Source: Nitrospirota bacterium (GTDB taxonomy: Bacteria > Nitrospirota > Nitrospiria > JACQBW01). From it: DNA of 64,000 nt. The stretch is taken from the NCBI GenBank assembly GCA_016178585.1, contig JACOTA010000018.1:34442-98441 (forward strand). The letters are read 5' to 3'. The position numbers were made by a program, and so were the translations under genes. The notes under the pieces were generated by a model that ran no database searches, was not told the origin of the DNA, and worked only from the letters and a program-made list of their open reading frames with translations. Shown in pieces: positions 5,766-46,696 of this stretch; the first letter of the stretch is position 1; each line of letters starts with the position of its first letter.

Positions 5766-7283
5766 ATGCCTTCTGGTCAAAACCGCGCTGATTTTGTTTT
5801 ATTGCTGCTGACTATCTTTATTTGCGGGATGATCGTGCTTGTCCTTGAAGTGCTGGGATCACGAATCCTGAGCCCCTATTTTGGGATCTCCTTATTCATC
5901 TGGACCTCGCTCATTACGGTTACCTTGATTTCGCTCTCTCTGGGGTACTGGATTGGGGGAATTCTCTCAGACCGTTATCAAAACCGGGATCTTTTTTATC
6001 TTCTGATCCTGGTTTCGGGATTTTTTGTCATGGTGATTCCGTTGATTCAAAAGCCGGTTTCTCTCGCGATGACCTCGTTCGGCCCGCGGTTGGGATGTTT
6101 AACGACCGCTTTTACCCTTTTCACCGTTCCCCTGACCTTATTGGGAATGGTGGCCCCGTTTTCCTTAAAACTTTCTCTCAGGGAAATAGATCGGGCGGGA
6201 AAGATTGCCGGAAATTTGTATGCGCTTTCCACCCTTGGCGGGATCATGGGAACATTGTTGGTGGGTTTCTGGCTGATTCCCAATCTGGGGCTGAAAAATA
6301 TTTTATTTGTTATTTCTATTTCCCTTTCTATTTTGCCGGCAATTCACTTTATGAAAACCAAAAACTGGATGCCGGCGCTGGGCTGTCTTTCGGTCATTTT
6401 CATCAGCGGAGTCTTGATGATTTATTTTTCTCAAAGAACTCAGGCCGGGAAAATTATTTTTAAATCAGAAAGTTATTACGGCCAGTTAAAGGTTCTCAAT
6501 GATCTAAACACGCATCTGTTGATGGTCGACGGGGCGATTCAGACCGCCTATCAGATAGACCTCCATCAATCCAAAGCTCCTTACACAGCGATGATTGAAG
6601 AGGTTCTAAAAGCTTACCGGGAGCAATCGACCACCAGGTTTCTCAATGGAGCCGTCATCGGATTGGGAGGGGGGATCATTCCGGAATCGGGGTATCATTC
6701 GGGTGATTCGATTGATATTGTCGAAATCGATCCCCGAATGCCGGTCGTCGCTCAAAAATTTTTTGAATTTCATCCCGAACGGTTTAATCTCATTCTCGAA
6801 GATGCCCGTCATTTTTTAAATGGGAACAAAAAAAAATATGACTACATTGTTCTGGACGTTTTCGCGGGAGAATCGTCTCCTTTTTATTTATTGAGTCAGG
6901 AGTGTTTTGAACAGGTAAGGAACAGTTTGACGGACGACGGCATTCTGGTGATGAACACCATCGGACTTTTTACCGGCGAGGGTTCGGAGTTTACCCAATC
7001 GATTTATAAAACCCTGCAACAAAAATTTCCCCACAGAGCGCTTTTAACTGTTTCTTCCAGAGATAATTTCACGAATTATATCATGCTGGCTTCGAACCGG
7101 CCTCTGGACCCTTTGATTGCTTCCTCCGGAAAACTTTTTTCCGGAGAAGTCCATTTAAAAGATGAAGCGGGGTTAGTCCTTACCGATGATTATAATCCGG
7201 CGGATTATCTGGAACAAAAGGTTGCCCTGGAATGGCGGTTGGCGATCTGGAGGGGAACCGTCTCCGAGATTCTGCTGGATTGA
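5766..7283 (+). CDS. Fused polytopic membrane domain + spermidine/spermine synthase-like (aminopropyltransferase-fold) protein
   Basis: N-terminal ~200 aa with multiple TM helices; C-terminal methyltransferase/spermidine-synthase-like fold (VIGLGGGII..DIVEIDP...VLDVFAGE). Confidence 0.7.
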   Translation: MPSGQNRADFVLLLLTIFICGMIVLVLEVLGSRILSPYFGISLFIWTSLITVTLISLSLGYWIGGILSDRYQNRDLFYLLILVSGFFVMVIPLIQKPVSLAMTSFGPRLGCLTTAFTLFTVPLTLLGMVAPFSLKLSLREIDRAGKIAGNLYALSTLGGIMGTLLVGFWLIPNLGLKNILFVISISLSILPAIHFMKTKNWMPALGCLSVIFISGVLMIYFSQRTQAGKIIFKSESYYGQLKVLNDLNTHLLMVDGAIQTAYQIDLHQSKAPYTAMIEEVLKAYREQSTTRFLNGAVIGLGGGIIPESGYHSGDSIDIVEIDPRMPVVAQKFFEFHPERFNLILEDARHFLNGNKKKYDYIVLDVFAGESSPFYLLSQECFEQVRNSLTDDGILVMNTIGLFTGEGSEFTQSIYKTLQQKFPHRALLTVSSRDNFTNYIMLASNRPLDPLIASSGKLFSGEVHLKDEAGLVLTDDYNPADYLEQKVALEWRLAIWRGTVSEILLD

Positions 7284-7308
7284 CTCCGAAAGGCCGGGAG
7301 CGGCGCGA

Positions 7309-8019
7309 ATGATAAAATTGCCGGTTAAAGTCATATTTTTTGACGCGGCTGAAACCCTTTTTAAAACAAGGGGTTCGGTTGGAGACATCTATTTAAAGAT
7401 TGCCAGGAAATATGGGTCGCGAGCTTCAAAAGAGGCGATTGACGAGGCTTTTTTTAACGGTTTTAAAAAATCTCCTCCTGCTGTGATTTCTCAGGATATT
7501 TCCCCGTCCGAGCGAATAAAAATTGAAAAGAATTGGTGGCGCACGGTGGTCAAACAGGTCTTCACGGAAGTCGGGATGATCCCTTCTTTTGACTCTTATT
7601 TTCAGGAGGTTTACACTGTTTTTAAAGGGAGTCAGGGGTGGGAGCTTTTTCCCGAAACGATTGAAGTTTTGTCCAGTTTAAAAAAGAAAGGGTATTCGCT
7701 TGGGTTGATTACCAATTTTGACACACGGGTTTACGAAGTGACCAAAGCGTTGGGTATCGCTCATCTCCTCGATTCAATGACCCTTTCGAGTGAAACGGGC
7801 GCTCCGAAACCCCATCCGGTTATTTTTAAAAGAGCGGTAGACGCGCACCAGATCAGACCCTCTGAAGCCCTTCATGTCGGAGACAGTCTTTCGGATGACG
7901 TTGAAGGGGCATTGAAAGCAGGCCTCCAGGCCGTCCTGATTGACCGCCACCACCTCTTTAAGCCGGGAAAAGATTATATTAAAATTGAATCTCTCACCGA
8001 ATTGCTTTATGATCTGTAA
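7309..8019 (+). CDS. HAD-superfamily hydrolase (subfamily IA)
   Basis: Motif I FFDAAETL (DxD-type variant), motif III/IV K....GDSLSDDVEGA; start moved to the ATG at 7309 to clear the upstream gene. Confidence 0.75.
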   Translation: MIKLPVKVIFFDAAETLFKTRGSVGDIYLKIARKYGSRASKEAIDEAFFNGFKKSPPAVISQDISPSERIKIEKNWWRTVVKQVFTEVGMIPSFDSYFQEVYTVFKGSQGWELFPETIEVLSSLKKKGYSLGLITNFDTRVYEVTKALGIAHLLDSMTLSSETGAPKPHPVIFKRAVDAHQIRPSEALHVGDSLSDDVEGALKAGLQAVLIDRHHLFKPGKDYIKIESLTELLYDL

Positions 8020-8030
8020 AAGTGAGGGGG

Positions 8031-8143
8031 TGTCATTGCGAGGAGGATTTTTCGACGAAGTGCTGTCATTGCGAGCAAAGCGAAGCAATCTATTTTCCAT
8101 ACGGGTGTTATGAGATTGCTTCGCTGGCGCTCGCAATGACAGG
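8031..8143. mobile_element. MITE family A locus (partial left arm + complete element)
   Basis: TGTCATTGCGAGGAGGATTTTTCGACGAAG then TGTCATTGCGAGCAAAGCGAAGCAATCT...AGATTGCTTCGCTGGCGCTCGCAATGACA. Confidence 0.8.
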
Positions 8144-8179
8144 CAACGAGATTAAATACGGTTGGGGTAGTCTGCACCT

Positions 8180-8686
8180 ATGATTATTCCTTATCAGGGG
8201 ATTTGTCCAATAGTACCTTCGTCCGTTTTTATTGCCCCCGGAGCGGTTATCATCGGGGATGTGGAAATCGGAGAGAGTTCCAGCGTCTGGTTTAATACGG
8301 TGGTTCGTGGAGATGTTCATTTTATTCGTATCGGCTCCAACACCAATATCCAGGACCTGTCGATGCTCCACGTTACCCGGAAAACCCATCCTTTGAAAAT
8401 CGGAAACAATGTCACTGTTGGCCACAGGGTGATTCTTCATGGTTGTACCATCGGGAATTTATGCCTGATCGGCATGGGGGCGGTGGTGATGGATGGCGCG
8501 GTGGTGGAAGATGGCGCTTTTATCGGAGCCGGCTCTCTGGTTTCAGAGGGGAGTGTGATTCCGGCGGGGATGCTTGCATTCGGCGTGCCGGCAAAGCCGA
8601 AACGTCCGTTAACGCCGGAAGAAAAGGCCTTTCTGACCCTCTCCGCCAAAAATTATGTCGAAGACGCCCGGACATATATTACGTAG
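8180..8686 (+). CDS. Gamma-carbonic-anhydrase / left-handed beta-helix hexapeptide-repeat family protein (PaaY/CaiE/YrdA-like)
   Basis: Hexapeptide repeats (IGDVEIGESSSVWFNTVVRGD, IGNNVTVGHRVILHGCTIGN); conserved His ligands. Confidence 0.8.
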   Translation: MIIPYQGICPIVPSSVFIAPGAVIIGDVEIGESSSVWFNTVVRGDVHFIRIGSNTNIQDLSMLHVTRKTHPLKIGNNVTVGHRVILHGCTIGNLCLIGMGAVVMDGAVVEDGAFIGAGSLVSEGSVIPAGMLAFGVPAKPKRPLTPEEKAFLTLSAKNYVEDARTYIT

Positions 8687-8710
8687 GGGCAGGTCCCCGT
8701 GCCTGCCCTG
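8684..8710 (+). repeat. REP element (GTAGGGGCAGGTCCCCGTGCCTGCCCTG), immediately 5' of the RAYT gene
   Basis: Hairpin GGGCAGG-N8-CCTGCCC; identical copies elsewhere in the window. Confidence 0.85.
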
Positions 8711-8725
8711 AATACATGATTCGAT

Positions 8726-9319
8726 ATGACATATAATCCAGATATCCACAAACGCCATTCCTTAAGGTTAAAGGGATTTGATTATGCTCAAACGGGCGCT
8801 TATTTCATTACAATATGCACCCAAAATCGGGAATGTTTGTTTGGTAAGGTGGTAAATGATCAAAGACACCTTAATGATGCGGGAGAAATGATTCTGACTT
8901 CCTGGAACGAATTGCCACGGCATTATCCGGGGGTTGATGTTGACCAATTTGTGGTAATGCCCAATCACGTTCATGGCATTATTATTTTAACTGTAGGGGC
9001 AGGTCCCCGTGCCTGCCCTGAATTGCATATTAAAAAAAGGCAACCAGAGGAAATTTCTCCTGCATTATCCTTGTTATCTTTGTCGGATATAATACAACGG
9101 TTTAAATCATTGACAACGACTCATTATCTCCAGGGTGTCATACAAACCGGCTGGCCCCCTTTTCATAAAAAATTATGGCAACGAAATTACTATGAACATG
9201 TTATCCGAAATGAAGAGAGTTTAAATCGCATCCGGCAATATATCCATGATAATCCTTTAAATTGGAATATAGATGAAGAAAATCCGGAAGGGCAGGCACG
9301 GGGACCTGCCCCTACATAA
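8726..9319 (+). CDS. REP-associated tyrosine transposase (RAYT; IS200/Y1 HuH family, COG1943) carrying an in-frame internal REP and a REP-derived C-terminus
   Basis: N-terminal ...YFITICTQNRECLFG...; HuH motif VMPNHVHGIII; C-terminal helix LSDIIQRFKS...LWQRNYYEHVIRNEESLNRIRQYIHDNPLNW with catalytic Tyr; REP copies at 8993-9020 (translated TVGAGPRACPE) and 9290-9316 (translated EGQARGPAPT-stop). Confidence 0.8.
   Translation: MTYNPDIHKRHSLRLKGFDYAQTGAYFITICTQNRECLFGKVVNDQRHLNDAGEMILTSWNELPRHYPGVDVDQFVVMPNHVHGIIILTVGAGPRACPELHIKKRQPEEISPALSLLSLSDIIQRFKSLTTTHYLQGVIQTGWPPFHKKLWQRNYYEHVIRNEESLNRIRQYIHDNPLNWNIDEENPEGQARGPAPT
8993..9020 (+). repeat. REP element inside the RAYT ORF
   Basis: Same 27-mer as 8684. 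Confidence 0.85.
9290..9316 (-). repeat. REP element (inverse orientation) forming the 3' end of the RAYT ORF
   Basis: GGGCAGGCACGGGGACCTGCCCCTACA. Confidence 0.85.
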
Positions 9320-9343
9320 TATATTTTCTTTTTGATTCATTCG

Positions 9344-9370
9344 TAGGGGCAGGTCCCCGTGCCTGCCCTT
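9344..9370 (+). repeat. REP element downstream of RAYT
   Basis: GTAGGGGCAGGTCCCCGTGCCTGCCCT. Confidence 0.85.
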
Positions 9371-9386
9371 ACACGAGGGAGTCTCC

Positions 9387-10277
9387 ATGGACCTGGCACA
9401 TAAAGAATATCTGGAGGTTTCCGTCGAAGTTGACCTTAATTTTCAGGAAACCCTTTCTTCATATCTTATTGAAAGAGGTGCCTCGGGAACCTGGGTCGAT
9501 GAGAGGAAGGTCAAGGCATATTTTAATCCTTTGGTTTTTTCTCTCTCACAGGTGGAAAAACAAATCGCCATATTTTTCCTCGAATTCCGTCGGGAAGGGG
9601 TTAAGGTTGAGTCTGGAGCTGTTGTCGTCCAAACACATCCCTATGAAGACTGGAACGCCGAATGGAAAAAGTTTTTTAAACCGATCAATGTCACTCCCCG
9701 TTTAACCATTTCCCCCCCCTGGGAGTCATATACCCCAAAAACGAATGAGGAAAAGGTTATTCTCATCGATCCCGGCCTGGGTTTTGGAACCGGGACCCAT
9801 CCGACCACCCGGAACTGCCTGGTCTTTCTCGACCGGATTCTCTCCGCGCATCCTGATCCTGTTCAACTGAAAGTGTTGGACCTGGGATCCGGTTCGGGTA
9901 TTCTGGCAATTGCCGCCGCTCGTTTAGGAGCCGGCTATATTGTGGCGGCGGATATCGACGGCGACGCCGTAGAGTCGATGCGGAATTCTTTCCTTTTAAA
10001 TCAGGTCCATCGCCATATCCGAATAAGGCTGGGGTCTATTTTTCAGGCAGATCGAAACGCGTATGACTTAATCCTGGCCAATTTAACGGCGGAAGATTTA
10101 ATCCTCGTAAGCCGTGAGCTTCAGGGCGCGCTTCTTCCGGAGGGCGGGCTCATTCTTTCGGGTATTCTGGCGGAAAAAAAAGAAAAGCTTGAAAAAACCC
10201 TGCACGAGTTGATGCTTAAAAAGAGGGACGAAATTGTGGAAGGACCCTGGGTAACCCAGATGTGGCAGAACGCTTGA
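9387..10277 (+). CDS. prmA: Ribosomal protein L11 methyltransferase
   Basis: LIDPGLGFGTGTHPTTRNCL...VLDLGSGSGILAIAA...AADIDGDAV; typical PrmA length. Confidence 0.85.
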   Translation: MDLAHKEYLEVSVEVDLNFQETLSSYLIERGASGTWVDERKVKAYFNPLVFSLSQVEKQIAIFFLEFRREGVKVESGAVVVQTHPYEDWNAEWKKFFKPINVTPRLTISPPWESYTPKTNEEKVILIDPGLGFGTGTHPTTRNCLVFLDRILSAHPDPVQLKVLDLGSGSGILAIAAARLGAGYIVAADIDGDAVESMRNSFLLNQVHRHIRIRLGSIFQADRNAYDLILANLTAEDLILVSRELQGALLPEGGLILSGILAEKKEKLEKTLHELMLKKRDEIVEGPWVTQMWQNA

Positions 10278-10302: not shown

Positions 10303-10330
10303 CGTAGGGGCAGGTCTCCGTGCCTGCCCT
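10303..10330 (+). repeat. REP element (one mismatch: GGTCTCCG)
   Basis: TACGTAGGGGCAGGTCTCCGTGCCTGCCCT. Confidence 0.8.
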
Positions 10331-10365: not shown

Positions 10366-10887
10366 ATGGATATGACTAAAAAAAAGCCGTTGGTTGCGAT
10401 TTTAATGGGAAGTCCCAATGACCTGCCCGTTATGGAAGAGGCCGCTAAAATGTTGAGCCAGTTTAACGTTCCCTATGATCTGATGGTCACCTCCGCCCAC
10501 CGTTCTCCCGAACGGACGCATCACGTTGTAAAATCAGCAAACGAGAACGGAGTCGAAGTCTTTATCGTCGGGGCGGGCGGGGCGGCCCATCTGGCCGGCG
10601 TCGTCGCTTCTTTGACCACGTTACCCGTGGTCGGTGTTCCAATCGATTCTTCCTCCCTTCAGGGAATGGATGCCCTCTTATCGACCGTCCAGATGCCGGG
10701 AGGGGTTCCGGTGGCGGCCATGGCGATTGGAAAAGCGGGAGCTAAAAACGCGGGAATTTTTGCCGCGCAAGTTCTGGCCAGAAAATATCCGGAGCTGGAA
10801 AAAAAACTGGCTCAATATAAAGAGGATATGGCCAGGGAAGTGGAACAAAAAGCCAAAATTCTTCATGACAGAAATCGTAAAAATTAA
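10366..10887 (+). CDS. purE: N5-carboxyaminoimidazole ribonucleotide mutase
   Basis: VAILMGS.ND...SAHR.P......GVEVFIVGAGGAAHLAG...T..PVVGVP; ~170 aa. Confidence 0.9.
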   Translation: MDMTKKKPLVAILMGSPNDLPVMEEAAKMLSQFNVPYDLMVTSAHRSPERTHHVVKSANENGVEVFIVGAGGAAHLAGVVASLTTLPVVGVPIDSSSLQGMDALLSTVQMPGGVPVAAMAIGKAGAKNAGIFAAQVLARKYPELEKKLAQYKEDMAREVEQKAKILHDRNRKN

Positions 10888-11479
10888 TCGGGAGGACCCC
10901 GATCCTGTTTTAAAGGAGGCCGCGCTCCGGGTCAAGGAAGGCAAAATAATCGTTTTTCCAACTGACACGCTTTACGGGATCGGCGTGGACATTTACAATG
11001 ATAGAGCAATCGATAGGGTTTTCTTGATCAAAAAAAGGGACAGCGGGAGCCCCATTTTAATACTGATCGAAAAGCCTTCTGATCTATTTCCTCTTGTTAA
11101 AAAGGTTCCCCCCGCGGGGCGAGAGCTTATCGACCGGTTCTGGCCGGGACCGCTGACGTTAATCTTCGACGCTTCGGAAAGTCTTTCCCCGCGACTGACC
11201 GGAAATACCGGAAAAATAGGAATCCGATGCCCCGATTCCAGGCTTGTCCAGCGTCTCCTCTCTTTTTTAAAAAGCCCGATTACCGCCACCAGCGCCAATC
11301 GGTCTCATGAACCTCCCTGTCAAAACGCTTCGGAAGCCGAAAAATATTTTGGGAACCAGGTCGATTTAATCCTGGATGGAGGAACTCTGGTTTCCGAACC
11401 CTCTACCGTGGCCGACGTGACCGGAGGGACCATCAAGATCATCAGGCAGGGCAAGATAAAAATAGAAAATCATACGTAG
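10865..11479 (+). CDS. tsaC: L-threonylcarbamoyladenylate synthase (Sua5/YrdC/TsaC family)
   Basis: GKIIVFPTDTLYGIGVD...ILILIE...GPLTLIF; the 281-aa track ORF begins inside purE, so the start is trimmed to ATG 10865. Confidence 0.8.
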   Translation: MTEIVKINREDPDPVLKEAALRVKEGKIIVFPTDTLYGIGVDIYNDRAIDRVFLIKKRDSGSPILILIEKPSDLFPLVKKVPPAGRELIDRFWPGPLTLIFDASESLSPRLTGNTGKIGIRCPDSRLVQRLLSFLKSPITATSANRSHEPPCQNASEAEKYFGNQVDLILDGGTLVSEPSTVADVTGGTIKIIRQGKIKIENHT

Positions 11480-11502
11480 GGGCAGGTCCCCGTGCCTGCC
11501 CT
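11474..11502 (+). repeat. REP element
   Basis: ACGTAGGGGCAGGTCCCCGTGCCTGCCCTTG. Confidence 0.85.
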
Positions 11503-29378: not shown

Positions 29379-29484
29379 GTAGGGGCAGGCCCCCGTGCCT
29401 GCCCTGATTTAAAAAACATTTTTTGGTTCTCAACCTGGTGTTTTGTCAGGATTTTCTGGGCAGGCACGGGGACGTGCCCCTACA
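29379..29484. repeat. Inverted REP pair (REPIN-like doublet) between trpD and trpC
   Basis: TGTAGGGGCAGGCCCCCGTGCCTGCCCTG at 29379-29406 and GGGCAGGCACGGGGACGTGCCCCTACA at 29458-29484. Confidence 0.85.
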
Positions 29485-36194: not shown

Positions 36195-36250
36195 GTGTAG
36201 GGGCAACCCCCTGTGGTTGCCCAGGACAGGCACGGGGGCCTGCCCCTACA
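36195..36250. repeat. Composite REP doublet (variant GTAGGGGCAACCCCCTGTGGTTGCCC + AGGACAGGCACGGGGGCCTGCCCCTACA)
   Basis: Same composite at 46642-46696. Confidence 0.8.
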
Positions 36251-46641: not shown

Positions 46642-46696
46642 TGTAGGGGCAATCCCCCGTGGTTGCCCAGGGCAGGCACAGGGGCCTGCCCCTACG
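46642..46696. repeat. Composite REP doublet (same variant as 36195)
   Basis: TTGTAGGGGCAATCCCCCGTGGTTGCCCAGGGCAGGCACAGGGGCCTGCCCCTACGA. Confidence 0.8.

Follow-up and report, generated by a model that had tools for sequence, protein, structure and literature searches.

The question raised by this locus is why a gene whose product is thought to mobilise a repeat should harbor that very repeat within its own reading frame. The locus lies in a stretch of 64,000 nucleotides, referred to here as the window, from the metagenome-assembled genome (MAG) of a Nitrospirota bacterium (GCA_016178585.1, contig JACOTA010000018.1, positions 34,442 to 98,441). It encompasses a gene for a REP-associated tyrosine transposase (RAYT, also called TnpA_REP) and four copies of a repetitive extragenic palindrome (REP): one upstream of the gene, one in frame within it, one encoding its C-terminus and one downstream. 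In all likelihood the locus is a REPtron, in which an intact RAYT gene of TnpA_Y1 subclass 2.4 is both surrounded and penetrated by its cognate REP, the internal copy being a passenger in a permissive loop. The original prediction, made from the sequence alone, had described these four copies, all of which prove to be exact over 27 of 27 positions, and had placed the locus at 8684-9370, correctly except for an offset of one base (8683-9369).

The repeat is a canonical REP, a GTAG-footed hairpin. Its 27-mer, GTAGGGGCAGGTCCCCGTGCCTGCCCT, here termed type A, consists as single-stranded DNA of a GTAG foot followed by a 7-bp stem (GGGCAGG/CCTGCCC) with an 8-nt loop, and the single hairpin folds at -8 kcal/mol (z -2.6). 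With no more than three mismatches the 27-mer is found 10 times in the window and not once in 100 dinucleotide-preserving shuffles; the copy counts of the REPs and of the RAYT gene (one copy) cover these 64 kb. The REPs adjoin the gene closely, at 17 nt upstream and 24 nt downstream, and the four exact copies are arranged as follows.

8683..8709, plus strand: REP copy 1, type A, upstream of the RAYT gene (exact 27-mer, hairpin)
8993..9019, plus strand: REP copy 2, type A, in frame and encoding V90-P98, VGAGPRACP (exact 27-mer)
9289..9315, minus strand: REP copy 3, type A inverted, encoding the C-terminal GQARGPAPT (exact 27-mer)
9343..9369, plus strand: REP copy 4, type A, downstream, 17 nt ahead of the prmA start at 9387
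9289..9369, both strands: REPIN-like inverted pair formed by copies 3 and 4, spanning the 3' end of the gene

Copies 3 and 4 constitute a perfect inverted pair, with a 28-bp stem and a 27-nt spacer, that folds at -39.1 kcal/mol (z -12.7).

The gene is intact, and is that of a RAYT with its cognate REPs. Its 197-residue product carries the HuH (HVH) and Tyr motifs that had been recognised from the sequence, and the assignment is borne out by a match to Pfam Y1_Tnp (PF01797; 30.5 bits against a cut-off of 23), by the motifs conserved in the family and by structural similarity to a known RAYT. The stop codon, TAA at 9317-9319, lies just past copy 3, such that this inverted REP encodes the last residues, (E)GQARGPAPT, as had been proposed, but not the stop itself, which falls outside the 27-mer. 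The protein has an exact match in the protein collection, a 'transposase [Nitrospirae bacterium]' that also comes from a MAG. Its principal features are given below.

8726..9319, plus strand: RAYT / TnpA_REP gene, 197 aa, intact (open reading frame (ORF), Pfam, motifs, AlphaFold (AF2) model)
8966..8974, plus strand: HuH motif H81-V82-H83 in MPNHVHGII (invariant columns of family alignment A1; aligned to the HuH strand of 4ER8)
9176..9208, plus strand: W151-Q152...E157-H158...R161 (profile alignment to 4ER8; conservation in A1)
9239..9256, plus strand: Tyr motif Y172-I-H-D-N-P (aligned to YIYINP of 4ER8; PMC6006769, Table 1)

Alignment A1 encompasses the 46 closest relatives, at around 60% identity, and the window protein is present in all 29 of its invariant columns. 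These columns include M78-P79-N80-H81-x-H83-G84 (the HuH motif), W151-Q152-R153, R161, Y172 and N176, with P177 nearly invariant. The AF2 model, built on these 46 relatives, has a mean predicted local distance difference test score (pLDDT) of 83.8, with the core above 90, and a Foldseek search of the PDB puts 4ER8 first (E 7e-07), a structure of E. coli TnpA_REP in complex with a REP hairpin, followed by the TnpA proteins of ISDra2 and IS608. Residues W151, Q152, E157, H158 and R161 align with W94, Q95, E100, H101 and R104 of the E. coli enzyme in 4ER8, the residues with a role in reading the GTAG foot (PMC6006769). On the alignment with 4ER8 the catalytic tyrosine is probably Y172 of YIHDNP, the counterpart of E. 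coli YIHYNP, rather than a tyrosine of NYYEH. In the model, a helix spanning residues 163-182 is followed only by a low-confidence tail, and there is no conserved C-terminal extension domain.

The REP copies beyond the RAYT gene are either intergenic or abut the ends of ORFs, and a second REP type, B (GTAGGGGCAACCCCCTGTGGTTGCCC), is found in two copies in the 64 kb. In each of two intergenic 'double-foot' dimers of 53 bp (36197-36249 and 46643-46695), a B copy is joined head-to-tail to an inverted A; the reverse strands of these dimers translate to VGAGPRACPGQPQGVAP, a peptide identical to the loop of most relatives of the window RAYT.

10304..10330, plus strand: REP type A with one mismatch, between prmA and purE
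11476..11502, plus strand: REP type A, exact; the ORF that ends at 11479 has the TAG of this copy as its stop
29379..29483, both strands: intergenic inverted pair of type A with a 51-nt spacer (-37.2 kcal/mol, z -9.1)
36197..36249, both strands: double-foot dimer B(+)A(-), 53 bp, intergenic; the reverse complement translates to VGAGPRACPGQPQGVAP
46643..46695, both strands: second double-foot dimer B(+)A(-), intergenic

The inverted pairs 9289/9343, 29379/29457 and 36197/36223 fold with z scores of -12.7, -9.1 and -3.6, respectively; the 46643/46669 dimer shares its B(+)A(-) layout with 36197/36223, the dimer covered by the folding. Across the window, then, the repeat is a short G+C-rich palindrome with a 5' GTAG, is multicopy and mostly extragenic, and forms long hairpins where it is found in inverted pairs.

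Two ORFs owe their stop codon to the GTAG foot of a REP. One is 8180..8686, which encodes a hexapeptide-repeat protein and whose end is overlapped by REP copy 1 (TAG 8684-8686), and the other is the ORF ending at 11479 (TAG 11477-11479). The copies at 8683 and 10304 have a 5' extension in common ahead of the GTAG, ATATATTAC, and the 9289(-) copy has ATATATTAT; the repeated unit is therefore longer than 27 nt and supplies the last codons of the upstream gene. A local REP sub-family marked by T at REP position 12, which is found in each of the six copies that lie no further than 3 kb from the gene and also in one of the four distant copies, was considered and rejected: the T/C polymorphism recurs in other genomes, and the association is a weak hint (hand-computed Fisher p ~0.03) on which nothing is built.

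The internal REP lies in the segment of the protein that connects strand beta3 to helix alphaC, where a second REP-derived sequence is also found.

8990..9076, plus strand: variable beta3-alphaC loop, residues 89-117 (low-pLDDT coil; hypervariable in 76 relatives)
9038..9063, minus strand: decayed partner REP, type B inverted, encoding RQPEEISPA (18/26 identity to B(-))

The loop is composed of a perfect A half, an 18-nt A+T-rich spacer and AGGCAACCAGAGGAAATTTCTCCTGC (9038-9063), which matches B(-) at 18 of 26 positions and is aligned in A1 with the GQPQGVAPT of relatives. In a scan of 128 kb (both strands) for B(-), 14 positions score at least 18, those at 19 or above being attributed to the A and B REP copies by count rather than by matched coordinates. 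REP-derived codons are thus found at residues 90-98, from the exact A REP, and at 105-113, from the decayed partner. The claim of an in-frame REP between the HuH and Tyr motifs is therefore upheld by the exact copy at V90-P98, although REP-related sequence takes up more of the loop than the nine residues originally described. The two halves have fared differently. The B half has decayed, mostly through G-to-A and C-to-T changes, in keeping with a gene core that is rich in A+T. At 27 of 27 positions the A half agrees with the neighboring copies, and it agrees with the upstream copy at 31 of 31 when the GAAT that follows is included, which points to a recent homogenisation by gene conversion or re-insertion. 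As read from these sequences, the loop appears to be an ancestral in-frame REP pair, A(+)...B(-), of which the B half has decayed, rather than a fresh nine-residue insertion. The original proposal of a recent self-insertion does not account for the same VGAGPRACP at the same place in relatives from other phyla, nor for the decayed partner that adjoins it, and on these two grounds was rejected as the whole story; for the same reasons the site is taken to be ancestral, with at most the A half recently refreshed. The suggestion that the REP is tolerated in a loop has held up better. The AF2 model renders both residues 89-117 and the tail (188-197) as coil of low confidence, outside its confident core, and the prediction fits a confinement of the REP-encoded residues to permissive sites, namely the beta3-alphaC loop and the C-terminal tail, in agreement with the published view of such insertions (PMC6006769).

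The relatives of the window RAYT indicate what is being conserved in this loop. In A1, VGAGPRACP is nearly invariant and most relatives have a second segment, GQPQGVAPT, just ahead of helix alphaC, but this alignment exaggerates the conservation of the peptide, as only proteins with exact words in common with the query pass the pre-selection of the search. A correcting set was consequently drawn from species-representative genomes of many phyla, comprising 80 loci, of which 76 with recognisable genes were counted. In these 76 genes the stretch from the HuH strand to alphaC is hypervariable in both length and sequence, and an alignment of the family, one of the checks that had been proposed, thus places the insert in a variable loop. 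The loop peptides are almost always of the VGA..., ...APT, ...PLQ or ...RPYG types, and the underlying DNA takes the form of GTAGGGGC...GCCCCTAC palindromes. A REP foot, GT[AG]GGG or CCC[CT]AC, is found in the loop of 69 of the 76 genes, the other 7 having none. Forward feet fall into the two frames that avoid TAG (59 and 9) and never into the third, whereas reverse feet use all three. The loop sequence also recurs beyond the gene: a loop 20-mer (up to two mismatches) is repeated outside it at 37 of 76 loci, a control segment taken from the same gene at 4 of 76, and exact loop 14-mers are repeated at 30 of 76. In the VGx motifs of the loops, 59 of 68 valine codons are GTA, as against 17% in the rest of these genes, and 60 of 68 glycine codons are GGG, as against 26%. 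Orthologues with the same nine residues do exist, as would be expected of a native loop, but they retain the REP at the nucleotide level: in seven genes, codon identity at identical residues is 84% in the VGAGPRACP-type segment, as against 46% in the rest of the gene. The codon choice, the frame of the feet and the extragenic recurrence together argue that it is DNA, and not peptide, that is conserved, and by these sequence comparisons each genome's loop carries its own REP.

The REP type follows the RAYT rather than the host. The Nitrospirota loci L030 and L037 carry different REPs, and the type A REP is common to genes from Gammaproteobacteria, Latescibacterota and Deltaproteobacteria; this is in line with the subclass's reported distribution, which is patchy and horizontally spread (PMC6006769). 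Two loci, L023 and L026, have an internal A/B pair near consensus with no REP detected in around 20 kb of flanks, and L009, like the window RAYT, has no intact partner REP in its loop. Tandem arrays of short peptide repeats or of REP-derived ones are found within the loops of P0111, P0049, L006, L013, L026, L051 and L074, for example GPCAVPK x4 and GQPHPI x4, and these lengthen the relatives to 230-276 aa with the frame unbroken.

The overall layout also has parallels. In Sedimenticola hydrogenitrophicus SN1189 (L007), an isolate, the RAYT gene is preceded by a REP pair, contains an A(+), has its C-terminal GQPRGVAPT encoded by a B(-), and is followed by another A(+). The +,+,-,+ order of the window had been regarded as a departure from the simple inverted arrangement; the same layout in L007, and the perfect inverted pair formed by copies 3 and 4, speak otherwise. 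In a Thermodesulfobacteriota MAG (L006), A(+)/B(-) pairs are found upstream of, inside and downstream of the RAYT gene. REP-derived C-terminal tails are seen in 5 other proteins among the 120 best hits, in addition to L007.

The Sedimenticola locus contains, in addition, a unit of around 150 nt that occurs three times (within 1-240 and 800-950 of L007). The unit encompasses a B(-) REP, the RAYT leader, the ribosome-binding site, the start codon with MDMTKP, and an A(+) REP. From their sequence, the short copies resemble RAYT genes that have lost the part between the start region and the internal REP, a hint that the internal REP may serve as an end for processing or recombination.

These properties are those of a described group. 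Quentin, Siguier, Chandler and Fichant (BMC Genomics 2018; PMC6006769) divided the TnpA_Y1 superfamily into subclasses, and reported that in-frame REPs between the HuH and Tyr motifs are a striking trait peculiar to subclass 2.4, which corresponds to RAYT group 4 of Bertels et al. 2017. In its sequence features the window protein fits a typical member of this subclass. The subclass motifs are NH[IFV]H, WQ and YIxNNP, here NHVH, WQ and YIHDNP; the median length is 194 aa, here 197 aa, without a C-terminal extension domain; and the variable beta3-alphaC insertion of in-frame REP sequence is found here too. The REPs of the subclass, which lie within around 1 kb of the gene, are likewise GT[AG]G-footed and of the long or 'double-foot' type, and their stems have three G-C pairs at the base (GGG/CCC here); the subclass is patchily distributed over many phyla. 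The in-frame loop REP is thus a known hallmark of the subclass and not an oddity, and the 'unusually' attached to it at first has to be withdrawn, given the foot in 69 of 76 relatives. The window RAYT differs from the published description in the D175 that replaces N in its Tyr motif (YIHDNP), in the decay of the loop partner REP, in its host, a MAG from Nitrospirota, a phylum not highlighted for the subclass, and in the further REP that encodes its C-terminal nine residues. In their account of the feature, the authors describe the insertions as 'generally' located between HuH and Y, and C-terminal ones go unmentioned there (PMC6006769). They judged the insertion to be a peripheral extension, probably with little effect on activity and likely neutral (PMC6006769).

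Other systems are more distant. The E. coli TnpA_REP/REPtron (group 2; 4ER8; Ton-Hoang 2012, Messing 2012, Corneloup 2021, PMC8266576) provides the best structural match to the window RAYT, although sequence identity is only around 20%. The two have in common the Y1 HuH fold, GTAG-footed REP hairpins that flank a single-copy gene, and the conserved W, Q, E, H and R that read the GTAG. However, the HuH motif is EHMH in E. coli (4ER8 alignment) and NHVH in the window RAYT, DHLH being the signature of subclass 2.2; the E. coli REPs have a bulged stem; and the E. coli gene has neither an internal REP nor a long beta3-alphaC loop. Moreover, the activity of the E. coli enzyme has been shown in vitro, whereas the window RAYT is known from sequence and a model. 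In-frame REPs in ordinary genes, and REPs abutting ORF ends, have been catalogued by Di Nocera et al. 2013 (PMC3733652); along with the Rickettsia palindromic elements (RPEs), they resemble the present case in being tolerated in surface loops or at the ends of ORFs, where they add 9-30 residues, and in often abutting ORF 3' ends. In contrast to those cases, the host gene here encodes the enzyme thought to mobilise the repeat, and the site recurs across a protein family. Finally, the TnpA proteins of IS200/IS605 also have the Y1 HuH fold and recognise single-stranded hairpins, but the window RAYT has no IS ends and no tnpB, is found in one copy in the window, and is associated with repeats that are 27-nt REPs. 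It scores 23 bits against a cut-off of 55 with the IS200 model NF033573, and its Tyr motif is of the RAYT type (YIxxNP) rather than YxENQ.

A mechanism for the locus can be proposed by analogy with the E. coli and Marinomonas enzymes. The RAYT would bind the folded REP on single-stranded DNA, with the GTAG foot read by W151, Q152, E157, H158 and R161, and the DNA would be cut and rejoined through Y172 with the aid of a metal held by H81 and H83. Such activity would probably spread and homogenise REPs, most efficiently near the RAYT's own gene. REPs that enter the gene would survive only where the frame stays open and the fold intact, that is in the beta3-alphaC loop and the C-terminal tail. 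The simplest way for the A half to have come to match the neighboring copies would be gene conversion, or re-insertion, with those copies as the source, and the pattern as a whole suggests that internal and external copies exchange sequence. The internal REP would then be a member of the genome's REP population that rides in a permissive loop, and neither a fresh disruption nor a sign that the gene is dying.

Several observations weigh against this account. The published biochemistry of RAYTs, as presented in PMC8266576, covers groups 2 and 3 only, and for that reason both activity and cis preference are inferred for subclass 2.4. The best NCBIfam match, NF047646 REP_Tyr_transpos (equivalog), is split into two stretches by the loop and reaches 68.4 bits, below the curated cut-off of 80, and the equivalog name is therefore not earned by NF047646 alone. 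Without its REPs, the RAYT gene has a G+C content (GC) of 37.5%, with 30-37% at third codon positions (GC3), whereas the housekeeping genes that flank it (the hexapeptide-repeat gene at 8180-8686, prmA at 9387-10277 and purE at 10366-10887) have a GC of 49-52% and a GC3 of 51-56%; the A+T-rich gene core could reflect a foreign origin, but also relaxed constraint or codon selection. A promoter and terminator scan of 8000-9600 found nothing on the plus strand above shuffled expectation, and no clear ribosome-binding site precedes the ATG of the RAYT. Finally, around 90% of the family keep the loop REP foot, some of them, such as L023 and L026, without a flanking REP, and this degree of retention is not obviously explained by a passive passenger.

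In the main rival explanation, the internal REP is not a passenger but a selected cis-acting element. It could act as an mRNA or single-stranded DNA hairpin that feeds back on RAYT expression through the protein, RNA decay or translation, or as a protected 'reference copy' that keeps the enzyme and the REP population matched. The retention of the foot in 69 of 76 family members from many phyla is in keeping with this, as are the conservation of the DNA beyond what the protein sequence needs, the near-consensus internal A/B pairs of L023 and L026 with no copy found in around 20 kb of flanks, and the full identity of the window A half to its neighbors despite an A+T-rich gene and a decayed B half. 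Yet loop length, copy number and foot position all vary greatly, seven of the 76 genes have no foot at all, and L009 and the window RAYT lack an intact partner. Furthermore, a DNA-level signal of this kind would also arise from concerted evolution with a conserved population of REPs, with no need of a function for the internal copy, and those who described the feature consider it likely neutral (PMC6006769). Taken together, selection on the internal copy appears unlikely at this locus, though it deserves to be kept in mind. In the same vein, and with a similarly small chance of being correct, the loop REP may be selected at the nucleic acid level across subclass 2.4, either as a self-recognition site through which expression is sensed or limited, or as a protected master copy or recombination end by which the enzyme and the REP population stay matched. 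The repeated units of L007, which start at an upstream REP, cross the RAYT start region and reach as far as an A-type REP, resemble RAYT copies with an internal deletion and are compatible with the second of these ideas.

Much less probable is the view, raised in the original prediction, that the gene is a decaying pseudogene recently riddled by REP insertions, with its frame open by luck. Its A+T-rich composition and low GC3 in comparison to its neighbors, the lack of a recognisable promoter or ribosome-binding site, the NCBIfam score below cut-off and the decay of the B half would all suit such a gene. However, the frame is uninterrupted over 197 codons, every invariant residue of the family is kept (29 columns of 29, with the HuH, WQ and Tyr motifs among them), and the core of the model has a pLDDT above 90. 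Both intragenic REPs are in frame, at two positions that are also used by relatives, and the layout is identical in the Sedimenticola isolate. With the frame open and the family residues kept, the pseudogene reading finds no support beyond composition, and it was rejected on the intact frame, the conserved residues and the model.

That VGAGPRACP is a native loop selected as protein, the REPs being derived from the gene segment or alike by chance, is suggested by its near-invariance in the 46 closest relatives (around 60% identity) but is exceedingly improbable and largely refuted, as that set is biased by shared-word pre-selection, the broader set has quite different peptides that are all GTAGGGGC...GCCCCTAC palindromes in different frames, codon choice at synonymous sites is fixed, each genome's loop matches its own extragenic repeats, and the loop is predicted to be disordered.

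For the most part, the locus bears out a peculiarity already in print, in a phylum and with a REP type that had not been singled out. As an example it is a clean one: the internal REP is exact, its partner has decayed, the C-terminus is encoded by a REP, and two upstream genes end in stop codons supplied by REPs. The broader question is why one RAYT subclass nearly always carries its own substrate inside its gene. Were the internal copy functional, this would be a rare case of an enzyme gene that houses the enzyme's recognition site as an element of control or memory, and it would bear on the long-term matching of RAYTs and REPINs. The family-wide numbers on foot frequency, avoidance of the stop frame, codon bias and extragenic co-variation make this question testable, without answering it.

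A minor observation concerns an ORF in the same part of the window. The ORF at 7186-8019, which encodes a HAD-family hydrolase, begins around 45 codons ahead of its Pfam domain (residue 47), and the true start is probably further downstream.

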